From a bacterium (GTDB taxonomy: Bacteria; Cyanobacteriota; Vampirovibrionia; Gastranaerophilales; JBAXKC01): a stretch of 18,152 nucleotides of DNA. Each line of letters begins with the position of its first letter. Position 1 is the stretch's first letter. The position numbers and the translations under genes are program-made. Where the stretch lies: contig JBAXKC010000046.1 in NCBI GenBank assembly GCA_037137535.1, forward strand, positions 1-18,152, written 5' to 3'. Below, one piece after another: positions 1 through 12,310 of the stretch. Below the pieces are notes generated by a model. The model worked only from the letters and a program-made list of their open reading frames with translations, searched no databases and had not been told where the DNA came from.

Positions 1-254
1 CAGCCGCAGATAATTTAGTCACAACAAGAACTAATGAATTAGCCGCAGCGACAACCGCAGATACAGCCGCAGATAATTTAGTCACAACAAGAACTAATGA
101 ATTAGCCGCAGCGACAACTAATGATCAAATTGCTGATGATCTTGTAATAACAAGAACTACTGAGTATACAGATGCTCTAAATGCTGATAATGCTGCGAAT
201 GTTATCGTTACAGAACGAACCGCTGAATTATTGGATGCTACAAATGCTTTGAAT
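1..254 (+). repeat. 63-bp (21-aa) coding tandem repeat with two near-identical and two degenerate copies, continuing beyond the left edge
   Basis: Bases 1-55 are identical to 64-118. Translated units: [21 protein letters not shown] / [21 protein letters not shown] / [21 protein letters not shown] / [21 protein letters not shown]. Confidence 0.9.
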
Positions 255-3200
255 GAAGCTGAAGCAGGAGTAATAGGCAGAATATCAAGAACCGGTAATA
301 TTTTCACATTAAGAAATGCGGAAAATGTTATTACTGAAAAATTAACGGTAAGTTTTGATGCAAATAATAATCAAACATTAGAATATTCTCAAGCAGCAGA
401 TAATTCTTTAATTTATAAAAAAGAATTTACTTATGAGCTTGAAGATGTAACAAATATGAATAAACTTTTAAGTGAAGTTGATACTTTACCGGATGGACAT
501 ATAACTACTCATACCTACACTTATAATGCACAAGGTTTATTAACTTCATCAACTGAACAAACCAATGCTGATGAACATCCAACAGTTTCAACCTATAATT
601 ATCTTAACGGAATGCTTATTTCAAAAGATGTAACCGCTATAAGCAATAATGAAGTAACTTCTCATTATAAGGAATATTTAACGGATGTTTCTCTTGAAAC
701 TCCTGTACTATCTAATGGAATACCTTTACTTCAAGGAACTGATACAAATAATTTAATACAATCTACTGACTCAGCATCTATTTTACGTGGTCTTGCAGGT
801 AATGATATTCTTATCGGCGGTGATGGAGCTGATACCCTTGATGGCGGTATAGGTACTGATACAATGGTAGGCGGTCTTGGTAATGATTCTTATATTGTTG
901 ATACGTCCGAAGATTTTATTACTGAATTATCAAATGAAGGTACAGATACTGTAACTTCAAGTAGTAATTATACTATTGGAGCTAATATTGAAAATCTTAC
1001 ATTATCAGGGGCTTCAAACATTAACGGAAGCGGAAATTCATTAAATAACATAATCACAGGGAACTCAGGCAATAACACTCTTGATGGAGGTGCAGGTGTT
1101 GACACCTTAATTGGTGGCTTAGGAAATGATACTTATATAGTTGATAGCGTTAGCGATATCATTACTGAATCAAGTAATCAGGGTACAGATACCGTAATGG
1201 CTTCACTTTCATATAGTTTAGGAGTTAATTTAGAAAATTTAACCTTCTCGGGAGCCTCTGATATTAACGGAACAGGTAATACCTTAAACAATATAATTAC
1301 AGGAAATACAGGCAATAACACTCTTGATGGCGGAGCTGGTTCAGATACTTTAATTGGCGGACTTGGAAATGATACATATATAGTTGATTGTACAGGTGAT
1401 GTCATTATTGAATCAGCTAATCAGGGAACTGATCTCGTTAGCTCCTCAGTTACCTATTCTTTAGGCAATAATATAGAAAATCTAACCTTGTCTGGTTCTT
1501 CTGTAATTAACGGAACAGGTAATTCTATAGATAATATTATTACAGGAAATGCTGTAAGTAATATTCTTATAGGTGGAGACGGAAATGACACCCTTGATGG
1601 CGGAGCCGGTATTGATACTTTAATCGGTGGTATTGGTAACGACACTTATAAAGTTGATAACGCAGCTGATGTTATTACCGAATCAGCTAATCAAGGAACT
1701 GATCTCGTTATTTCTACAACTTCTTATACATTAGGACTCAATATCGAAAATATAACTTTATCGGGTACTTCTTCTATTAATGCCACAGGTAACGCATTAA
1801 ATAACGTCATTACAGGAAATGACGGAGCTAATATCCTTGATGGCGGTGCAGGTACTGATACAATGGTAGGTGGTCTTGGAAATGATACTTATATAGTTGA
1901 TAATTTAGCTGACGTTGTTACTGAATTAGCGAATGAAGGTGTTGATCTTGTAAGTTCTAATATTTCATATACTATTGGAAACAACATTGAAAATCTTACA
2001 TTATCAGGCTCTTCAAATATTAACGGTACAGGTAACGCATTAAACAACATAATTACAGGAAACGCAGGAAATAATACTCTTGATGGCGGTGCAGGTCTTG
2101 ATACCTTAATTGGTGGTTTAGGAAATGATACTTATTTAGTTGATAACATTAATGATGTTGTTACTGAATCAATCAATCAAGGAACTGACGTAGTTGTTTC
2201 TACAGCTTCATACAGCTTAAGTCAAAATTTAGAAAATCTGACTTTAGTCGGTGATTCTGATCTTAACGGAACAGGTAATACATTAAACAATATAATTATT
2301 GGAAATATTGGAAATAATATTCTTGATGGTGGCACAGGTTCAGACACATTAGTCGGTGGACTTGGTAATGACACTTATATGGTTGATAATACAGGTGATG
2401 TAGTTATTGAATCAGCTAATCAAGGTACTGATCTTGTTAACTCCTCAATTTCATACTCTTTAGGTAATAATATCGAAAATATAACCTTATTAGGCTCTTC
2501 TAACATTAATGCCATAGGTAATACATTAAATAACGTCCTTACAGGAAATGATGGCGCTAATACCCTTGATGGTGGTTTAGGCACTGATACAATGGTAGGT
2601 GGTCTTGGAAATGATACTTATATTGTTGATAATTTAGCTGATGTTGTTATTGAGTTATCGAATGAAGGTGTTGATCTTGTAAGTTCTAATCTTTCATACA
2701 CTATAGGAGATAATATTGAAAACCTTACATTATCAGGCTCTTCAAGTATTAACGGTACAGGTAATTCACTAAGTAACATAATCACAGGGAACTCAGGAAA
2801 TAATACTCTTGATGGCGGTGCAGGTGTTGATACTATGATTGGCGGACTTGGAAATGATACATACTTAGTTGATAATATTAATGATGTTATTAATGAATCA
2901 AGTAATCAAGGAACTGATGTAGTTATTTCTACAGCTTCATACAGCTTAAGTCAAAATTTAGAAAATATAACTTTGTCGGGAGCTTCTGATCTTAACGGAA
3001 CAGGTAATACATTAAACAATATAATTACAGGAAATACAGGCAATAACACTCTTGATGGCGGAGCTGGTTCAGATACTTTAATTGGCGGACTTGGAAATGA
3101 TACATATATAGTTGATTGTACAGGTGATGTCATTATTGAATCAGCTAATCAGGGAACTGATCTCGTTAGCTCCTCAGTTACCTATTCTTTAGGCAATAAT

Positions 3201-5522
3201 ATAGAAAATCTAACCTTGTCTGGTTCTTCTGTAATTAACGGAACAGGTAATTCTATAGATAATATTATTACAGGAAATGCTGTAAGTAATATTCTTATAG
3301 GTGGAGACGGAAATGACACCCTTGATGGCGGAGCCGGTATTGATACTTTAATCGGTGGTATTGGTAACGACACTTATAAAGTTGATAACGCAGCTGATGT
3401 TATTACCGAATCAGCTAATCAAGGAACTGATCTCGTTATTTCTACAACTTCTTATACATTAGGACTCAATATCGAAAATATAACTTTATCGGGTACTTCT
3501 TCTATTAATGCCACAGGTAACGCATTAAATAACGTCATTACAGGAAATGACGGAGCTAATATCCTTGATGGCGGTGCAGGTACTGATACAATGGTAGGTG
3601 GTCTTGGAAATGATACTTATATAGTTGATAATTTAGCTGACGTTGTTACTGAATTAGCGAATGAAGGTGTTGATCTTGTAAGTTCTAATATTTCATATAC
3701 TATTGGAAACAACATTGAAAATCTTACATTATCAGGCTCTTCAAATATTAACGGTACAGGTAACGCATTAAACAACATAATTACAGGAAACGCAGGAAAT
3801 AATACTCTTGATGGCGGTGCAGGTCTTGATACCTTAATTGGTGGTTTAGGAAATGATACTTATTTAGTTGATAACATTAATGATGTTATTACTGAATCAG
3901 CTAATCAAGGCATTGATACTGTTATTTCTACACTTTCCTGCAGTTTAGGTCTTAACTTAGAAAATCTTACATTATCAGGAACTTCAAATATTAACGGTAC
4001 AGGTAATGCCTTAAATAACATCATTACAGGAAACGATGGAGCGAATGTACTTAATGGCGGAGCTGGTACTGATACTTTAATTGGCGGACTTGGAAATGAT
4101 ACTTATCTTTTGGATAGCATTATAGATATCATTACGGAATACGATAATGAAGGAACAGATTCAGTAGTTTCAAGTGTGACATACTCCTTAGCTCAGTATG
4201 TTGAAAACCTCACATTGACGGGTTCATCTAATATTAATGGTACAGGTAATTCATTAAGTAATATAATTACTGGAACTACAGGCAATAATATTCTTAATGG
4301 CGGTGATGGTAATGATACCCTTGATGGTGGTGTCGGTATTGATACTTTAATGGGTGGATTAGGCAACGACACTTATAAAGTAGATAATATCGGTGATATC
4401 GTTATAGAATCAAACAATCAGGGTACGGATACTGTAATATCAACGATTTCCTACTCTTTAGGTCAAAATGTTGAAAATCTAACATTATTAGGTTCAACAA
4501 ATATTAATGCAACAGGAAATGCTTTAGATAATATCATTATCGGTACTTCAGGCAACAATATTCTTATAGGTGCAGATGGAAATGATACTCTTGATGGCGG
4601 TATAGGTGCTGATACTTTAATCGGTGGATTAGGCAATGACACTTATAAAGTAGATAATATAGTTGATATCGTTACAGAATCAAACAATCAGGGGACAGAT
4701 ACCGTAATGTCAACTATTTCCTACTCATTAGGTCAAAACGTTGAAAATCTAACATTATTAGGCTCAACAAATATTAATGCCACAGGTAATGGATTAAATA
4801 ACGTAATCAATGGAAATAGTTTAAATAACATTCTTGATGGCGGAGCTGGTTCTGATACATTAATAGGAGGACTTGGCAATGATACCTATATGGTTGATAA
4901 CACAGGCGATGTTGTTAAAGAATTATTGAATCAGGGTACAGATACTGTAAATTCTACAATTTCATATTCTTTAGGATTGAATGTAGAAAATCTTATTCTA
5001 TCGGGCTCTTCAAGCATTAATGGAACTGGAAACACCTTAAACAATACAATTACAGGTAACTCCGGCGCTAATATCTTAAATGGTGGATTTGGAGATGATA
5101 CCTATATTACAGGAGCTGGAAACGATACAATCATTGATACAGCCGGCAATGATACTTATTTGTTTAATATTGGCGATAAAGTAGATACATTGACAGATTC
5201 AGCAGGAAACGACACTATTAAGCTTGGAGTTAATAAAACCAATGTAGCCTTATTTATTGATAATTCAGGTAATTTATCCATTGACTATGGAACTGCTGCA
5301 GGTATCGATAAAGTTGTTATTACAAATTGGACAACAGCTGCAAATGAAGTGGAAAAAGTGCAACTTAATGACAATACTTATGTTACAAATACGCAGATAA
5401 ATCAGGTTATTCAAGATATGGCTACTTATGCGGCAAATAACTCGATTAGCTGTAATACAGTTGAAGAAGTCAAAAATAATTCTCAGTTAATGACTATAGT
5501 TTCAAGCTCCTGGCATGCATAA
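3..5522 (+). CDS. Giant RTX-repeat (hemolysin-type Ca-binding) secreted/surface protein, 5'-truncated by the window edge; probable T1SS substrate or adhesin
   Basis: The frame of the 231..5522 ORF is open back to base 3 ([21 protein letters not shown]...), so TTG 231 is not the true start. Dozens of GGxGxDxLx nonapeptides lie in 17 modules marked by ENLTL/ENITL. The C-terminal tail (VEKVQLND...[11 protein letters not shown]...SSSWHA) resembles RTX T1SS signals. Stop TAA 5520-5522 is followed by a terminator hairpin. Confidence 0.9.
780..5220 (+). repeat. Array of 17 RTX modules (243 bp/81 aa; 270 bp/90 aa when an extra nonapeptide is present)
   Basis: 17 occurrences of (S/T/N)-Y/C-x-L/I-xx-N/Y-x-EN(L/I)-T/I-L/F counted in the translation. 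DNA periods of 729 bp (1861 vs 2590), 270 bp (4321 vs 4591) and 1728 bp (=6x243+270) are visible. Boundaries are approximate. Confidence 0.9.
1284..3887 (+). repeat. Perfect 876-bp direct repeat: 1284-2159 = 3012-3887 (offset 1728 bp)
   Basis: Line-by-line comparison found no mismatch between flanking mismatches 1283c/3011a and 2160g/3888a. The identical antisense ORFs at 1454..1645 and 3182..3373 confirm the offset. Confidence 0.9.
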
Positions 5523-5531
5523 ATAATAGCT

Positions 5532-5568
5532 TAGAGAGAGTGTGGTTAATTTCACTCTCTCTAGTTTT
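5532..5568 (+). terminator. Intrinsic terminator of the RTX gene
   Basis: TAGAGAGAGTG (5532-5542) pairs with CACTCTCTCTA (5553-5563): 11-bp perfect stem, 10-nt loop, followed by GTTTT, about 10 nt after the stop codon. Confidence 0.75.
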
Positions 5569-5596
5569 AAATTACAGTAAAACTTTATAGATATTA

Positions 5597-5642
5597 AATA
5601 ACCTCTACCGTCAGATATTTTTATCTAAAAGTAGAGGTTATT
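5597..5642 (-). terminator. Long hairpin, probable terminator of the convergent ubiX-kinase transcript
   Basis: AATAACCTCTAC (5597-5608) pairs with GTAGAGGTTATT (5631-5642) as a 12-bp stem, with an inner AGATA/TATCT stem (5613-5617/5622-5626). It lies about 30 nt after the kinase stop. The U-tract is imperfect. Confidence 0.6.
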
Positions 5643-5673
5643 ATATTTTAAACTTGTTTCAAAAAATCAGTAA

Positions 5674-6204
5674 TTATGCAAATCTTTGTCTGATTTCTTT
5701 AACTAGTTCTCTTGCTTTTTGTTTTAACTCTTCATGAGTTCCGTCATTATTAATAACGTAATCCCATTCTGTTATATCATCTAAATCTACTTCGGTTGTA
5801 TCAAATTCACTAACAATTAAGCCTCTTTTAGCTCTCTCTTCACGAGGGGAGTTTACTCTTATTTTGATAGCCTTTCTTTTTGTGAAGGATTCATATTCAT
5901 TTTTAACTCTCATGTCAGAAACTATAAGATTATCTCCTGCTTCAAGAACAAGTTTTATCCAATAGTCAGAATCTATTTTTCGCATTCTGTTTCCGAGTTC
6001 AATTAAATCAACTCTATAAACAGGTTTATTCATCTCAATAATATCAACAGCAAGACCTTTTTCCTCACTGAATTTTTGTTTGATTGCTTTAGCAAGAGGT
6101 GCTTTAACAAATCCTTCTAATTCTGCTGCAAAAATATCAGCAACTGTGTCTTTTCCGCTAAACTGCTTTCCTGAAATTGCAACTATTTTTTTATCTTTTT
6201 TCAT
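5674..6204 (-). CDS. NMP-kinase-fold P-loop kinase resembling animal-type phosphomevalonate kinase (P-mevalo_kinase family); substrate uncertain
   Basis: Motifs SGKQFSGKD, IKQKFSEEKGL, KPVYRVDLIELG, IVSDMR, IRV...ERAKRG and TEVDLDD..EWDYVINNDG parallel human PMVK as recalled (SGKRKSGKD, LKEQYAQEHGL, KEAFRKDMIRWG, LVSDTR, SRQQRG, SECGLDN..DFDWVIENHG). The start is placed at ATG 6204 (SD-like AGGTGGAG upstream, ATGA overlap with the ubiX stop) rather than GTG 6213. Confidence 0.7.
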   Translation of the reverse strand: MKKDKKIVAISGKQFSGKDTVADIFAAELEGFVKAPLAKAIKQKFSEEKGLAVDIIEMNKPVYRVDLIELGNRMRKIDSDYWIKLVLEAGDNLIVSDMRVKNEYESFTKRKAIKIRVNSPREERAKRGLIVSEFDTTEVDLDDITEWDYVINNDGTHEELKQKARELVKEIRQRFA

Positions 6205-6830
6205 GAACTCCACCTTTCATACAGGGTATTATCTATATTGCAGGAATCTAAAATTTTACCTGCTACAAAATTTATATAATCATCTATAGTTTTAATATTT
6301 GCATAAAAACCCGCAATAGGCGGTATGATTTTCACTCCCATCTTTGAAAGTTTTAACATATTTTCAAGATGTATAGAACTCAAAGGAGTTTCTCTCGGAA
6401 CAATAACAAGATTTTTTTGTTCTTTTAATATTACATCAGCAGCTCTACAAATCAAATTTTCTGCAATTCCATTTGAAATTAAAGCAATAGAAGACATGCT
6501 TGCAGGTGCAATAATCATATGATTAACACCATATGAACCACTTGCGCAGGAAGCCCAAACTTCATCATTTAGCCAAACTTTTAAGTTTGGTTCTTTATCT
6601 TCTAGCTTTAAAAAGTCTAAAACTTGTTGTTTTATAAATTCTTTATCATGTGCCAATTCAAGCCCAATTTCATGTTTAGAGATATAATAAGCCTTTTCAG
6701 AAAAAATAAGTTCTACTTTAAGATTATTTTTAAGCAAATATTCTAATGTTTTCAATCCAAATTGAATACCGCTGGCAGCGGTAATAGCTAGAACTACAGG
6801 TTTAGAACCTTGTTGCATAATATAAACCAT
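6201..6830 (-). CDS. ubiX: Flavin prenyltransferase UbiX
   Basis: LAITAASG, ASGS, IIAPASM, RAADVILKE, VPRETPLSSIHLENM, PP..GFY and C-terminal RW motifs. The start could be the second Met at 6818. Confidence 0.93.
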   Translation of the reverse strand: MVYIMQQGSKPVVLAITAASGIQFGLKTLEYLLKNNLKVELIFSEKAYYISKHEIGLELAHDKEFIKQQVLDFLKLEDKEPNLKVWLNDEVWASCASGSYGVNHMIIAPASMSSIALISNGIAENLICRAADVILKEQKNLVIVPRETPLSSIHLENMLKLSKMGVKIIPPIAGFYANIKTIDDYINFVAGKILDSCNIDNTLYERWSS

Positions 6831-6832
6831 AA

Positions 6833-6858
6833 AAACTAATTAGCATTAGTTTATTATA
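6833..6858 (-). promoter_or_regulatory. Putative -10 box (TATAAT, 6858-6853) abutting an 8-bp palindrome upstream of ubiX
   Basis: The minus strand reads TATAAT-AAACTAAT-GCTA-ATTAGTTT-TT-ATG. No good -35 is present, and the AT-rich background weakens the call. Confidence 0.35.
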
Positions 6859-6937
6859 ACTTTATTTATAAATATACGCCATAGTTAAGTTAGGTTATTA
6901 TTAAAATTAAGATAAGGATTTTTACAATGTTGTCAGC

Positions 6938-9340
6938 TTAACCTGAACCAATAAGCTCCAATCCTTCATTGATTTTTTGGTTTATTTTTTTGTCTAAAAC
7001 AGGAAAATCTTCTAAATTATATTTATTTATAAAATCAAAAGCTGTATCCCTTGCTAATTCAAGAATATCTGCATCTTCGCATAAGTCGGCAAGAATAAGA
7101 TCAGGTAATCCGCTTTGTTTTGTTCCCATAAATTCCCCTGGACCTCTTATTTGAAGATCACGTTCGGCAACAATAAAGCCGTTAGTTGTCTGAACCATAA
7201 CATCTAATCGCTCTTTTGTGTCAGGTGATTTAGTCTCAGCTATAAGAACGCAGTATGACTGAAGTTCATTTCTTCCTACACGACCTCTTAGCTGATGTAG
7301 CTGAGAAAGTCCAAATCTTTCCGCATTTTCAATAATAATAGCAGTCGCATTAGGCACATCAACTCCTACTTCAACGACTGTTGTGCAGACAAGAATATGG
7401 TATTTGCCCGCCCTGAAGTCGTCCATTACTTTTTCTTTGTCGGCAGAAGAAAGTTTTCCATGCATTAAACCTATATTCAAGTCTGAAAACTCTCCTTCTT
7501 GAAGTTTTTCAGCTTCTTTTACAGCAGCTTTTGCCGATAAAGTTTCGGATTCTTCTATTAAAGGAAAAACAATATAGGCTTGATGACCTTTTTCAATTTC
7601 TTTTCGTATTAGTTCGTAGGCTTTTTTCCGCTCTTTATTTGAAATAAAAGCAGTTTTAACGGGTTTCCTTCCCGGTGGAAGTTCATTTATAATTGTATTG
7701 TCTAAATCTCCGTGAACAGTCATTGCGAGTGTTCTAGGAATCGGAGTTGCGGTCATTGTTAAAAGTTCGGGATTTCTTCCTTTGTTTTTAAGCCCTGTGC
7801 GTTGTTTTACACCAAATCTATGTTGTTCATCAATAACGACCAGTCCAAGGTTATTAAACTCAACACCCTCTTGAATTAAGGCATGTGTTCCTACCGCAAG
7901 GTTAATCTGACCGTTTTTAAGGTTTTGAGCCTGTTCTCGTCTGACTTTAACGCCATGCTTTCCTATGAACAGCCCTACGCTTATCCCTAATGGGGTTAGC
8001 CAGTTTACAAAGTTCTTATAATGCTGTTCCGCAAGAATTTCTGTTGGCGCCATAATAGCTGCCTGATAACCATTTTCAACCGCTGCTAACATAGACATAC
8101 ACGCTACAACCGTTTTACCGCTACCGACATCGCCTTGAAGAAGTCTTTGCATCGGTTCGGGATTTGATAAATCAGCCATAATTTCATTAAAAGCATCATT
8201 TTGTCCTTGAGTGAGCGTAAAAGGTAATGACTTTATGAATTTTTCAACTAATCCTTTTTCTTTTACATTTAAAACAAGTCCTTCGGAGCATAATCGGCTT
8301 TGTTTTCTCATATATGCAAGTCTTAACTGGACTAAAAACAGTTCTTCAAAAACAAGCCTTCTTCTTGCAGCAGCAAGCATTTCCTGACTGTCGGGGAAGT
8401 GAATTTGTTTAATAGCCTCTTGTTTAGAAATTAATTTAAGCTCTGCCTCTATAAATTCAGGAATAAAATTAATGATTTTCTCGCTATATACCTCAATAGC
8501 ATTATGAATAGCAGTTCTTAACGTTTTAACATGCAAATTTTCAGTTAAAGGATAAACAGGAACAATTCTCCCTACATGTAGCGAATCACTTGATGTTGCG
8601 TCAAAGTCACCGCTTAAAATTTGTTCTTGAGCTTTTTCAATTATATAGGTATTTTTAAAATTATCGTATTTTACACTTCCTGATAAAATTACTCCTGAAC
8701 CAACTTTGAATCGTTCTTTATATTTATCCAGCATATATTTATTTGATTTTGCATAAAACCAGCTTGCAGAGGCTATTCCTGTTCCATCGTTAACTAAAAT
8801 TGAAAGAATAGTAAGATTATTTCGTTTCGGACTTGTAAAAGCGTTAACTGATTTAATTGTTCCAAAAATACTAACTTCTTGACCTATTTCAAGATCACAA
8901 ATTTTAGTTCGGTTTGCAAAGTCCAGATGTTTTCTTGGAAAATAATGAAGTAAATCATTTGCGTTAAAGATTCCTAATTTATTTAATATTGCAGAAATTC
9001 TTGGGCCTACTCCTTTAACGTACATAACATCAGCATCTTCAGGATTTGCTACAAACTTATTTTTCTTTTCAATAGTTTGCTCGTCTTCCTCGGGGGCTTT
9101 CAAGTATGAAATAAGCTGTTTTACCGATTTCATTCTATATGCAACATCCATTTGAGGATATCGCTGAAACGTTTCAAAAAGATTTGCCCATTTTTCACTT
9201 TTTGGCTTAATTCGTAGATGATTTTTTATTTCGCCACAAATAAATTCTGAAAAAGTACAAGTTCTTCCGCTAATATTTATATATCTATGCGTATCTTCTA
9301 CGTCAATGGCTTTTTTAATTGTTTCAATATTTTTTAACAT
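6938..9340 (-). CDS. recG: ATP-dependent DNA helicase RecG with N-terminal extension
   Basis: VKGVGP and DLLHYFPR wedge-domain start, PVYPLT, RRRLVFEELF, RLLQGDVGSGKT (motif I), DEQHRFG (II), MTATPIPRTL (III), QLRGRVGR (VI), DLQIRGPGE. Confidence 0.97.
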   Translation of the reverse strand: MLKNIETIKKAIDVEDTHRYINISGRTCTFSEFICGEIKNHLRIKPKSEKWANLFETFQRYPQMDVAYRMKSVKQLISYLKAPEEDEQTIEKKNKFVANPEDADVMYVKGVGPRISAILNKLGIFNANDLLHYFPRKHLDFANRTKICDLEIGQEVSIFGTIKSVNAFTSPKRNNLTILSILVNDGTGIASASWFYAKSNKYMLDKYKERFKVGSGVILSGSVKYDNFKNTYIIEKAQEQILSGDFDATSSDSLHVGRIVPVYPLTENLHVKTLRTAIHNAIEVYSEKIINFIPEFIEAELKLISKQEAIKQIHFPDSQEMLAAARRRLVFEELFLVQLRLAYMRKQSRLCSEGLVLNVKEKGLVEKFIKSLPFTLTQGQNDAFNEIMADLSNPEPMQRLLQGDVGSGKTVVACMSMLAAVENGYQAAIMAPTEILAEQHYKNFVNWLTPLGISVGLFIGKHGVKVRREQAQNLKNGQINLAVGTHALIQEGVEFNNLGLVVIDEQHRFGVKQRTGLKNKGRNPELLTMTATPIPRTLAMTVHGDLDNTIINELPPGRKPVKTAFISNKERKKAYELIRKEIEKGHQAYIVFPLIEESETLSAKAAVKEAEKLQEGEFSDLNIGLMHGKLSSADKEKVMDDFRAGKYHILVCTTVVEVGVDVPNATAIIIENAERFGLSQLHQLRGRVGRNELQSYCVLIAETKSPDTKERLDVMVQTTNGFIVAERDLQIRGPGEFMGTKQSGLPDLILADLCEDADILELARDTAFDFINKYNLEDFPVLDKKINQKINEGLELIGSG

Positions 9341-11325
9341 TCACATTTATCCGTACTGATTAACTGGATAACTTCATATATATTTAGCGGTTCGCTTTTT
9401 CCTTTTACATAAACGGAGCTTATTTTTATAACATCTAAACAAGTTTTGACTCTTTGATATGTATATTCACTTATTAAAAGTTTAGTATTATATAGCTTAT
9501 TAAACGATTCTAATCGACTTGCAAGATTGACCGTATCACCGATAACGGTGTATTCCATTCTTTCTTCAGAGCCTATATTACCGATAAAAGCAACTCCCGT
9601 ATTTATGCCTATTCCTATTTCAACTTTAGGTTTGCCCTCTTTTATCCATTTTTTTTGAAGCTCTTTTACTTTTCCAATCATTTCATAAGCACATTTAACC
9701 GCTTCATAAGGATGATTTTTATTATCGTCTTCTGTTCCAAAGACCGCAAGAAGAGCATCACCCATAAATTTATTTAGAATACCGTTATTTCTCCCGATGA
9801 TAGGTATCATTTCGCTAAAATACAGATTTAAAATAGCGCTTACTTCTTCGGGTTCAATATTTTCTGAAATCTGCGTAAAATTTCTTATATCTGCAAATAA
9901 AACCGTCATTTCTAAACGTTTCCCGCCTAATTTAGCGGTTCTTTTATTGGTGAAAATATCATCCATCACTTTATTTGACATATACTTTGCCATAACAGAC
10001 TGAATTTGCTTTTTATGACGACTTTCTAATAAATATTTTACACCATATCCAATAGTCATCGAGCTGATTGCAAATATAGGCGGAGTTACTATATCAATAG
10101 CAAAATTATTAATATAACTGAAATAACATATTTCAAAATAAATAAAACTTATTAATGCAATTATAATTGCGCTATATATGGGAGAAAGAGCGAAAATTAT
10201 TATAAAACAAGCAATTAAGGTAATAAGTAAAATCAACACATCTATAAGCAAGGAATGAGTTATAGCCTTTTTATCCATTAAATTATTTATAGCTGTTGCC
10301 TGAATGTAAACTCCAGGGTAATCTCTTCCCATTGGGGTTGACTTTATGTCTTTGAGCACAGTTGAAGTTGCTCCGAAAACAATGGTTTTGCCCTTAAACT
10401 CATTTGGATTTATAAGAGGAGTTTCTCCTTTTTTTATTTGTTCAAAAGAATGTATTATTTTCCATGCACTGTATGTTTTATATGGCAGATAGTGATTATT
10501 TTTATACCATTTTAAATAAATATAACTTGATTTTTTATTACTTATTAGAGGAATATTTAATTTGTTTTTTCCGATTAAAGTTAATCGGTTATTGCTTAAA
10601 TTGAATTTTTTAAATCCGTTTATTTTTGAATATAAGGCAAGAGAAAGCGAGGGGTAATAATTATTTTTATATTTGATAATTGGCTCAAATTTTCTTATTA
10701 TTCCATCAGAATCAGGCTCAGTTAATACAGATCCTAATGAAATATTTTTATTTACAAGCTCAGGAAGAGAATAGGAGCAACTGTAATAATTGCTGTTTTT
10801 AATTATTTTTTTTGATCTTTTGTCGTTAATATCTAAAGAATTAAACTTTTCAAAATTTTCATGTACTTTGTTTTCAAAACTTAAATCAAAAAAGCCTTTT
10901 TGTTTTGAATAAAATGTCCCCATGTTTAACTTTATTAATTTCTTCGCCCTGTTAAAAAATTCTAAATCCTCTTTAGGATTAGAATAAGAAAAAAGATATG
11001 AATCAAAAGCTATTGCTTTAACTTTCCCATAATTTTCAAAATATTCAAAAACATCCGTATAAAGGGATCTTTTCCATGGCCATCTTCCTATTTTATTTAA
11101 GGATTGGTCATCGATTGTAACTATAACAATGTTCTTTGAAGGTTTATCTGATGCTGTTATATTTGATAGAAAATCATATGCTTTAAGCTCAAGAAAACTT
11201 TGACAAAGAACATATATCAAAATATAAAAAATTGCGGATATGACTACAACAGTAAAAAGTTTTAACTTGGAAAGATTTTTAAGCAGTTGTAGAAGCATTT
11301 TCAAGTTCAGTGTTTTCATTTTCAT
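9334..11325 (-). CDS. CHASE2-domain membrane class III adenylate cyclase
   Basis: N-terminal TM; CHASE2 motifs (IVIVTIDDQSL, GRWPWKRS, DSDGIIR, YPSLSLAL, GKTIVFG, PGVYIQATAINNL); three TM helices; catalytic motifs VLFADIRNFT, NKFMGDA, GIGINTG, EYTVIGDTVNLASRLE, VKGK. The start is uncertain (Met at 11325, 11319 or 11298). Confidence 0.93.
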   Translation of the reverse strand: MKMKTLNLKMLLQLLKNLSKLKLFTVVVISAIFYILIYVLCQSFLELKAYDFLSNITASDKPSKNIVIVTIDDQSLNKIGRWPWKRSLYTDVFEYFENYGKVKAIAFDSYLFSYSNPKEDLEFFNRAKKLIKLNMGTFYSKQKGFFDLSFENKVHENFEKFNSLDINDKRSKKIIKNSNYYSCSYSLPELVNKNISLGSVLTEPDSDGIIRKFEPIIKYKNNYYPSLSLALYSKINGFKKFNLSNNRLTLIGKNKLNIPLISNKKSSYIYLKWYKNNHYLPYKTYSAWKIIHSFEQIKKGETPLINPNEFKGKTIVFGATSTVLKDIKSTPMGRDYPGVYIQATAINNLMDKKAITHSLLIDVLILLITLIACFIIIFALSPIYSAIIIALISFIYFEICYFSYINNFAIDIVTPPIFAISSMTIGYGVKYLLESRHKKQIQSVMAKYMSNKVMDDIFTNKRTAKLGGKRLEMTVLFADIRNFTQISENIEPEEVSAILNLYFSEMIPIIGRNNGILNKFMGDALLAVFGTEDDNKNHPYEAVKCAYEMIGKVKELQKKWIKEGKPKVEIGIGINTGVAFIGNIGSEERMEYTVIGDTVNLASRLESFNKLYNTKLLISEYTYQRVKTCLDVIKISSVYVKGKSEPLNIYEVIQLISTDKCEC

Positions 11326-12310
11326 CTGCCATTTCTGACTCTTTTATAAGGTCAAAATCTTCTTCCTCGATTTCAATATCTGCAGAAAGTTTGTTTAATT
11401 TAGTTTTGATGTAAGGAATAATACCGAAACATCCTGAAATAAGAACAATACTAAACCATAATAAACTGAATACAATTGCTTGAGGCTGTTTTACACCTAC
11501 AACACTCAAAAGTATTATATATGTAGCCTCTCTAGGACCAAGCCCGTTGAAAGAAAACGGTACAAATCCTGATATTGCGGTTATAGGGTATAAGACAAGA
11601 TAATATAAAAGAGGAATATGAATACTCATCGCATCAGCAATCGCTACATGGATTAATATAACTGTGAAATTGAAAAGCAAAGACCATAAGAGAGTTTTGG
11701 CAAACATATCAGGATTTTGCCAGTAAACACGAATATCTTTCAGCATGGTTCTTGCCCATTTTTTATTTTTAAATAATTTCATCATTAACGTTGGGAAAGT
11801 TGGTGTAATAAGGCAAATCAGCCCCATTAGCGAAAATGTAAGAATTTTAAAAGCAACAGGCACTTTTTCTGCTATAGGTAAAAACATTCCGACAGTTGCC
11901 ATTGCCACAATAACTATAACACCGCTGTATCTGTCCATAAGAACGGTATAAATCGAAGGAGCTTTTCTTTTGGCAGAATCACCTCTTGCCAGATATAATG
12001 CCTTTATGAAATCTCCTCCCACCGTTGTGGGAAGAAAAAGGCTAAAAAACATACCCATGAAATAATATTTTATATAATCTTTAGGCTTATTCCTAAAACC
12101 AACTGTTTCGCAGATTAATTTCCATTTAAACGAGCTTATTACTTGCCCTAAAAGATATACAGCTACACATAACACTAAAATTATATGATTAGTTTTTACC
12201 AATGCTTCCCATATTTCAGAAACATCAGTATTTGAAACTAAAAGCCATACTAAAAAAGCACTTATTGCAATTCTTATAAATAGTTTCAGCAGTTTAGACG
12301 CTTTAAACAT
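11279..12310 (-). CDS. Lysylphosphatidylglycerol-synthase-TM (UPF0104, flippase-like) integral membrane protein
   Basis: About 8 hydrophobic segments, with family motifs KW..I, YFMGMFFSLFLPTTVGGD..K, MDR..G and PFSFNGLGPRE, and an acidic C-terminal tail. SD-like AAGGG lies upstream. Confidence 0.85.
   Translation of the reverse strand: MFKASKLLKLFIRIAISAFLVWLLVSNTDVSEIWEALVKTNHIILVLCVAVYLLGQVISSFKWKLICETVGFRNKPKDYIKYYFMGMFFSLFLPTTVGGDFIKALYLARGDSAKRKAPSIYTVLMDRYSGVIVIVAMATVGMFLPIAEKVPVAFKILTFSLMGLICLITPTFPTLMMKLFKNKKWARTMLKDIRVYWQNPDMFAKTLLWSLLFNFTVILIHVAIADAMSIHIPLLYYLVLYPITAISGFVPFSFNGLGPREATYIILLSVVGVKQPQAIVFSLLWFSIVLISGCFGIIPYIKTKLNKLSADIEIEEEDFDLIKESEMADENENTELENASTTA

Follow-up and report, generated by a model that had tools for sequence, protein, structure and literature searches.

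The ubiX-kinase locus

The window analyzed here is the whole 18,152-nucleotide stretch of contig JBAXKC010000046.1 (assembly GCA_037137535.1), from a bacterium of the Gastranaerophilales (Vampirovibrionia, Cyanobacteriota). On its minus strand it carries ubiX (6201-6830), encoding a UbiX-family flavin prenyltransferase of 209 aa, followed directly by a gene (5674-6204) for a 176-aa P-loop kinase of the superfamily that includes phosphomevalonate kinase (PMVK) and the phage deoxynucleoside monophosphate (dNMP) kinases. An initial annotation, made from the DNA alone, had read the pair as a candidate module supplying dimethylallyl monophosphate (DMAP) or dimethylallyl diphosphate (DMAPP) for the synthesis of prenylated flavin mononucleotide (prFMN) by UbiX, or else as part of an atypical mevalonate (MVA) pathway. 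The results described below make it somewhat probable that the kinase has a housekeeping role in phosphorylating phosphomonoesters, its acceptors probably being (deoxy)nucleoside monophosphates ((d)NMPs), that its gene is carried by whatever gene lies upstream, and that its pairing with ubiX is a lineage-specific operon. Most likely, ubiX and the kinase gene do not form a dedicated prenyl-phosphate module, and the kinase is not a UbiX accessory.

The two genes share a start/stop overlap, ATGA (6201-6204, minus strand), in which the kinase ATG (6204-6202) lies on the ubiX TGA (6203-6201). This overlap, which the initial annotation had correctly picked out, is read directly from the DNA, and the two genes are predicted to be joined by translational coupling through it. 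Near the end of ubiX, and separated by 5 nt from the ATG of the kinase gene, is a Shine-Dalgarno-like AGGTGG (6210-6215, minus); it comprises the codons of the conserved C-terminal Arg-Trp of UbiX (the Trp being the equivalent of W200 in PaUbiX) and may also serve in ribosome binding. By the ORF listing the kinase frame can be extended to a GTG at 6213, and public collections carry the 176-aa form that starts at the ATG. In the case of ubiX, a start at the ATG at 6818 instead of 6830 would give a protein of 205 aa, which is the length of the database copy P0252.

The claim that the pair has its own promoter and terminator was borne out for the terminator and not for the promoter. A terminator-like hairpin 3' of the kinase gene (5597-5642, minus) begins 32 nt past the kinase stop and has a folding energy of -26.8 kcal/mol (z = -5.67), with 0/200 shuffled sequences folding as well; its role as a terminator is thereby supported, although its 3' tail is U-poor (UUUAAUAU) and a consensus/simple terminator scan did not call it. 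The AT-rich spacer between recG and ubiX (6831-6937, minus), a gap of 107 nt from the recG stop (6938) to the ubiX start, is a possible promoter region and contains a single, weak promoter-like match (9/12). Across positions 5400-7100 there are 7 promoter-like sites versus 8.5 +/- 2.6 in shuffles, i.e. no excess. A promoter in the spacer is a possible candidate, and read-through from recG is also compatible with these data.

The UbiX protein

The ubiX product scores well above the cutoffs of TIGR00421 (176.5 bits; cutoff 108.9) and PF02441 (3e-37, 128 bits; cutoff 22.7) and slightly below that of NF004685 (186.3; cutoff 188). Its best solved relatives are the UbiX structures 6m8v (1.7e-40) and PaUbiX (3zqu/4zaf, 3e-37), with the latter of which it aligns end to end. 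In the HMMER alignment the window UbiX is identical to PaUbiX at S15, E49, R122, K129, E140, Y169, F181 and W200, whereas the position of PaUbiX R185 is occupied by Lys; the same pattern, comprising the eight identities and the R185 to Lys replacement, is present in all 13 UbiX proteins of the ubiX-linked clade described below. Of these, S15, E49, R122, E140, Y169, R185 and W200 count as catalytic or phosphate-binding residues of PaUbiX, roles that are taken in part from PMC6541611. According to that source, Phe181 of the DMAP-specific PaUbiX blocks the β-phosphate of DMAPP; the window UbiX has Phe at the same position. The protein thus looks intact and PaUbiX-like, with the differences that Lys replaces R185 and that no ubiD gene lies nearby. 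Its prenyl donor, whether DMAP or DMAPP, is not readable from its sequence. A protein from ACD20 is also a UbiX, 65% identical to that of the window.

Di Rienzi et al. (PMC3787301) described the gut and aquifer Melainabacteria that they sampled as being without quinones and electron-transport chains. Set against this are the ACD20 UbiX and, on contigs of the ubiX-linked clade, genes for NDH-1-type subunits (NuoH, NuoD, NuoC-like), a fragment of a UbiA-family prenyltransferase, and an oxidoreductase resembling electron transfer flavoprotein-quinone oxidoreductase (ETF-QO) together with a ferredoxin (L005:17413-20229, L005:23-550, L006:105-1738). The presence of these NDH-1, UbiA and ETF-QO-like genes agrees poorly with the view of the first Melainabacteria genomes as quinone-free and purely fermentative (PMC3787301).

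Kinase family, fold and active site residues

The kinase matches P-mevalo_kinase (PF04275) at 54.9 bits (gathering score 33.8) and, in two partial stretches, DNMK (PF21448) at 44.5 bits (gathering score 27.1). Together with the TIGR00421 and PF02441 matches of UbiX, the PF04275 match confirms the identities first given to the two genes, i.e. ubiX and a PMVK-like kinase. The kinase falls short of every curated equivalog cutoff, scoring 55.5 bits on TIGR01223, the animal PMVK equivalog (cutoff 188.15), 31 on NF006226 (cutoff 189) and 16.5 on TIGR02173 (cutoff 102). Its best single-sequence family match is phrog_139, 'deoxynucleoside monophosphate kinase' (1e-26, 95 bits, residues 2-173), which matches a gut homologue of the kinase at 1e-31. 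Ranked by single-sequence score, the closest annotated families are the phage dNMP kinases and then the animal PMVKs. No match was found in the kinase to PF00696, the amino-acid-kinase fold to which isopentenyl phosphate kinase (IPK) belongs; the protein instead has the P-loop nucleoside monophosphate (NMP) kinase fold.

When compared with the PDB as a single sequence, the kinase matches human PMVK (3ch4) at 8e-12, silkworm PMK (7xnd) at 1e-10 and the T4 dNMP kinase (1dek) at 6e-3; a profile of 31 family members matches 7xnd at 7.5e-29, 3ch4 at 1.4e-28 and 1dek at 4e-13. An AlphaFold2 model of the kinase (pLDDT 92) has as its top Foldseek matches 7xnd (TMq 0.73) and 3ch4 (TMq 0.81), followed by an archaeal adenylate-kinase-related protein, dephospho-CoA kinases and 1dek. 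In the ESM-Atlas the closest clusters contain the DNMK domain; their members belong to Melainabacteria, Bacillota and phages, and many are viral.

The family has an invariant signature of its own, consisting of SGKQFSGKD, K42, K60, R64, R75, W82, D97, R99, E103, R116 and R127. The human PMVK residues R18, K19, R111, K48, K69, R73, R84 and R110 are those that we take to form the basic substrate site, with R111 presumably contributing to the binding of mevalonate phosphate. Positions aligned to K48, K69, R73, R84, R110, R130, R138 and R141 of the human enzyme are basic and invariant in the kinase family, whereas R18, K19 and R111 align to Q14, F15 and V100 of the kinase, the Gln-Phe being near-invariant across the family and the R111-aligned position being hydrophobic (Val/Leu/Met) in most members. 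On these grounds the kinase is, by sequence, a homologue of both the animal PMVKs and the phage dNMP kinases and the equivalog of neither; it is an uncharacterised member of a known superfamily, on a bacterial branch between the two.

These results bear on the possibility that the kinase is a true PMVK, acting in a complete or atypical mevalonate pathway in which UbiX would serve an archaeal-like, UbiD-type anhydromevalonate-phosphate decarboxylase. The PF04275 score above gathering, the human and silkworm PMVKs as best solved relatives, and the label 'phosphomevalonate kinase' that the JGI gives to several homologues are all as this proposal would have it. Against these stand the TIGR01223 score and the gene content, as no mvk, hmgS/R, mvd, ubiD or ipk gene, nor an aconitase-type dehydratase pair beside the kinase, was found in the window or in the nine related loci scanned. 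We know of no PMVK step in the archaeal anhydromevalonate-phosphate route. Furthermore, isoprenoid synthesis in relatives of the lineage apparently follows the methylerythritol phosphate (MEP) pathway, in that an IspG orthologue is listed from a genome of the Gastranaerophilales (PMC8896826, Table 2) and Vampirovibrio chlorellavorus is described as encoding the non-mevalonate pathway with two of three MVA marker genes missing (PMC4451040). No MVA gene was found near any of the pairs scanned. We regard a PMVK function in a mevalonate pathway as highly improbable, and the comparative data do not support the atypical mevalonate route of the initial annotation.

Distribution and neighborhoods of the kinase

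Named homologues of the kinase come from Candidatus Gastranaerophilales and relatives, and include those with the JGI label. An exhaustive search of representative proteins returned 2357 at E <= 1e-3, of which 6 were at E <= 1e-30. A genome scan with the motif SGKQFSGK, which samples this kinase family only, gave 84 relatives; 80 loci were kept, with <= 10 kb on each side. The presence of ubiX was assessed by tblastn with the window UbiX, over +/-10 kb or, at contig ends, over a shorter distance. Neighboring ORFs, defined simply by taking the longest frame, were clustered and annotated with Pfam and NCBIfam (n = 81 including the window).

Directly upstream of the kinase, ubiX is present in 12/80 related species-level genomes, so that the pairing extends beyond the genome in which it was noticed; in the other 68/80 loci tblastn detected no ubiX within +/-10 kb. 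The most frequent upstream gene among the 81 loci is S1-like (38), followed by ubiX (13), glyQ on the opposite strand (6), flhA (4) and recG without ubiX (3), with other genes in 16 and a contig end in 1. The S1-like partner is a protein of 352 aa with four S1 domains, below the cutoffs for 30S protein S1, and a sigma-70 gene usually precedes it. The gaps between the S1-like and kinase genes range from -20 to +9 nt, mostly -8 to -14, and those between flhA and the kinase gene from -1 to +3 nt. Most gut-type Gastranaerophilales have this S1-linked arrangement, in which the kinase gene begins 8-14 nt before the end of the S1-like gene (38 loci, L015-L067 and others); an example is L030:8944-10002 with the kinase at 10001-10510.

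Further neighbors include L21/L27 genes downstream of the kinase in 8 loci, a uridine-kinase-like gene <= 4 genes away in 12 loci, and purD, which is the next gene downstream in both L075 and L076. The S1, L21/L27, uridine-kinase-like and purD contexts thus have, in several cases, a nucleotide or translation flavor. A P-loop motif screen of the 80 loci, a very small sample for this purpose, returned 6 ORFs in four groups (ABC ATPase, GTPase-like protein, CoaE and RsmG), none of which is a canonical NMP kinase. Since CoaE adjoins the kinase in L019, the kinase is not the dephospho-CoA kinase of that genome.

Among 20 distant homologues scanned, 7 are fusions of the kinase with a calcineurin-like phosphoesterase (P0142, P0168, P0176, P0179, P0186, P0211 and P0233); these proteins are ~460-490 aa long, with the calcineurin-like metallophosphoesterase being N-terminal. 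In P0167 and P0173 (~410 aa) the N-terminal 230 aa have no Pfam match. Several metagenome-assembled genome records with the Vampirovibrionia-type kinase and synteny (L001, L002, L009, L011, L018, L035, L045 and L080) bear the titles 'uncultured Gammaproteobacteria' or 'Muribaculaceae', and are probably mislabelled bins.

NMP-kinase folds have been recruited to new acceptors elsewhere, and it may be asked whether the acceptor of this family is some other phosphomonoester, neither nucleotide nor isoprenoid, with the ubiX adjacency being incidental. The failure of the kinase at every equivalog cutoff, its own invariant signature and its diverse operon partners are consistent with such a function, but nothing points to a particular acceptor, and among named families the closest are kinases of nucleotides and of mevalonate phosphate. 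We consider this alternative rather unlikely.

The ubiX-linked clade

A maximum likelihood tree of the 81 kinases, obtained by a quick method, places the 13 ubiX-linked kinases (the window and 12 others) in one clade (SH-aLRT 100), with the ubiX-linked state requiring 1 change; the S1-linked state requires 2 changes. The single clade implies that the linkage arose once. The window kinase itself is on a long terminal branch in this tree. Closer relatives of it, with 81% and 72% identity, are present in metagenomes, on contigs equal in size to those of the closest UbiX matches (12,755 and 18,960 nt). By hand comparison, 24/99 other kinase clusters share their longest-contig size with one of the 119 other UbiX clusters listed, a proxy for co-location that concerns the same clade.

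The junction between the two genes is conserved, with the ATGA overlap present in 12/13 cases, the exception being L001 which has ATGAATAA instead, and AGGTGG present in 13/13. The flanks vary by comparison. Upstream of the pair are found recG (window, L012), cdaA (L002, L004, L006, L008), a nucleotidyltransferase gene (L009) and others, and downstream an MnmL/YtqA-type radical-SAM gene (5 loci), CoaE (L019) and others. No UbiD, MVA, IPK or Nudix gene was present among 124 ORFs in 9 ubiX-linked loci, nor among 23 further neighbors in other loci. With respect to the kinases, all of the invariant polar residues are common to ubiX-linked and unlinked members, and the two groups differ only conservatively, at F/Y45, I/L83, V/I86, L/V100 and S/A119.

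In L024, L046 and L079 the CHASE2-cyclase/recG/kinase synteny is kept, and an AT-rich recG-kinase gap of 293-347 nt replaces ubiX. A search of these gaps for a ubiX remnant gave no match in two of them and in the other a 24-residue match with E = 0.02, which was read as chance; given the lack of a remnant, insertion and clean loss of ubiX are indistinguishable in these loci. UbiX-kinase fusion proteins were also sought among longer proteins (309-2000 aa), with none being found, which is weak evidence. The long hits scanned from the representative search are phosphoesterase-kinase fusions or have unassigned N termini, and have no Flavoprotein domain.

Other features of the window

Apart from the pair, the minus strand carries recG and genes for a CHASE2 adenylate/guanylate cyclase, an LPG-synthase-TM protein, an NFACT (RqcH-like) protein and prephenate dehydratase. 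The beginning of recG shares 7 nt with the end of the CHASE2-cyclase gene (9334-9340), and the LPG-synthase-TM gene (11279-12310) contains the cyclase start (11325), 47 nt within it; the same-strand run through the LPG-synthase-TM, cyclase and recG genes may constitute one transcript reaching ubiX. In a Pfam scan of all 10 other ORFs of >= 150 aa and of the 1839-aa RTX-repeat ORF, no UbiD-like or mevalonate-pathway protein was found in the window, in agreement with the initial annotation, which had noted that it holds no ubiD-family gene.

The RTX-repeat ORF (3-5522, plus strand, 5' end open) encodes a giant RTX-type protein with 22 HemolysinCabind stretches (402 bits). Its array consists of 17 tandem units of 243 or 270 nt, within which stretches ~1728 nt apart are 100% identical (e.g. 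1272-1571 to 3000-3299; 1785-2084 to 3513-3812), which would be explained by recent duplication of a higher order or else by an artefact of assembly. Also on the plus strand, 17008-17979 encodes a 323-aa protein with an N-terminal flavodoxin-like region, hydrophobic segments and two 4Fe-4S ferredoxin motifs, just before which is a 184-aa ORF (16453-17007) that has no Pfam match.

Discussion

The overall results suggest how the ubiX-kinase pair may have come about. The two-gene transcription unit would consist of a complete ubiX, then the small P-loop kinase gene with its start on the ubiX stop. Judging from its family and conserved residues, UbiX would supply prFMN to a UbiD-type enzyme whose gene lies in another part of the genome. 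The kinase family is present throughout the Gastranaerophilales/Vampirovibrionia, almost always as a distal, overlap-coupled operon gene, and its upstream partner switches by lineage, the largest clade having an S1-like gene, a second one flhA and that of the window ubiX; the ubiX adjacency was gained once and then inherited. In terms of chemistry, homology predicts that the γ-phosphate is passed from ATP to the phosphate group of a phosphomonoester (X-P + ATP -> X-PP + ADP), with the acceptor most likely being a (deoxy)nucleoside monophosphate, which is a guess. The co-expression of ubiX and the kinase in the clade would then arise because the kinase gene, seemingly without expression signals of its own, is carried by the upstream gene.

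Several observations weigh against the assignment of the kinase as a (d)NMP kinase with a chance partner. The family profile is much closer to animal PMVK (~103 bits, full length) than to 1dek (52 bits, two pieces). The pair is intact in 13/13 clade members while its flanks vary, and its retention despite this flank turnover makes some selection on the pair or on shared expression plausible. As the lineage apparently uses the MEP pathway, a PMVK-like enzyme there needs a substrate other than mevalonate phosphate, and an isoprenoid monophosphate is the chemically nearest alternative acceptor. In addition, the Phe at PaUbiX position 181 in 13/13 linked UbiX proteins fits a DMAP-using UbiX that needs a source of DMAP (PMC6541611).

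Some of the same observations speak for the proposal that the kinase is an isoprenoid-monophosphate phosphotransferase, interconverting DMAP and DMAPP or isopentenyl phosphate (IP) and isopentenyl diphosphate as a non-homologous analogue of IPK, and setting the DMAP pool of UbiX in the ubiX-linked clade. Retention of the pair with ATGA in 12/13 junctions, the PMVK-like character over the whole kinase length in an MEP lineage, and the hydrophobic residue in most kinases at the position of R111, with the role that we assume for this residue, are all compatible with it, as is the literature consulted on Escherichia coli, which describes as DMAP sources only the Nudix hydrolases NudJ/B/F/I (DMAPP -> DMAP) and ThiM (prenol -> DMAP) (PMC12359138, citing Wang et al. 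2018). We nevertheless regard the proposal as improbable. The 68/80 orthologues without ubiX within +/-10 kb are coupled to unrelated genes; the linkage is of single origin; linked and unlinked kinases show no residue difference of a functional type; phages encode numerous homologues, and it is a family of phage dNMP kinases that gives the best match; and no isoprenoid gene is near the kinase in any scanned locus. Moreover, a cellular excess of ATP over ADP would be expected to drive the reaction to DMAPP, not to DMAP. The broader version, in which the Vampirovibrionia-wide kinase is a P-loop analogue of IPK in MEP bacteria and ubiX is coupled to it because the kinase sets the DMAP pool for prFMN, is in our view slightly less probable still. 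Overall, the single origin of the linkage, the 68 loci without ubiX and the identical invariant polar residues speak against the dedicated DMAP/DMAPP supply module of the initial annotation, and a DMAP/DMAPP role of the kinase for UbiX is unsupported. A literature search, the coverage of which was mostly without subscription journals and thus gives a weak absence, found no description of a ubiX/PMVK-like pairing or of a PMVK-like source of DMAP.

If the plain reading is right, i.e. a housekeeping kinase in a lineage-specific operon, then a tidy ATGA-coupled pair need not be a pathway module, given that the same kinase is coupled likewise to S1, flhA or ubiX depending on the lineage. The family is retained throughout an entire non-photosynthetic class allied to cyanobacteria, studied relatives of which use the MEP pathway, and identification of the kinase substrate would reveal either a non-canonical nucleotide kinase or, less likely, a new prenyl mono-/diphosphate route. 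Such a route, if true, would bear on the open question of the DMAP source of UbiX.

The kinase can be compared with several known systems. The Nudix hydrolases and ThiM of E. coli fill the role that had been proposed for it (PMC12359138), but are of unrelated folds and chemistry; neither a Nudix nor a ThiM gene was found beside ubiX in the window or the nine related loci scanned. With respect to isopentenyl phosphate kinase, a kinase of this family acting on IP or DMAP would be an analogue, not a family member. With the animal PMVKs (3CH4, 7XND) the kinase shares the NMP-kinase-like fold, size, a full-length alignment and the SGKxxSGKD P-loop with its Lys and Asp. The identity is ~25%, however, the P-loop Arg-Lys is replaced by Gln-Phe and the R111 position is hydrophobic, and the kinase comes from a lineage whose relatives use the MEP pathway, with no MVA genes nearby. 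The phage dNMP kinases (T4 gp1, 1DEK; PF21448; PHROG 139) provide its best single-sequence family match, and the SGxxxSGKDT P-loop, the DxR motif and the C-terminal TE...D...N block of the T4 enzyme align with it; the T4 enzyme differs in being 241 aa long with a large insertion, and its alignment with the family profile is the two-piece one of 52 bits noted above (TMt 0.50). The window kinase is also distinct from the phage enzymes in being chromosomal and conserved across a bacterial class, with no phage context.

With respect to operon structure, a parallel can be drawn with cmk-rpsA, an operon widespread in bacteria in which a gene for an NMP-kinase fold is co-transcribed with that for ribosomal protein S1. 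The likeness lies in the S1-like gene that overlaps the kinase gene in 38/81 loci; the difference is that S1 comes first in the kinase loci, i.e. the order is reversed, and that the kinase is not a member of Cytidylate_kin (PF02224).

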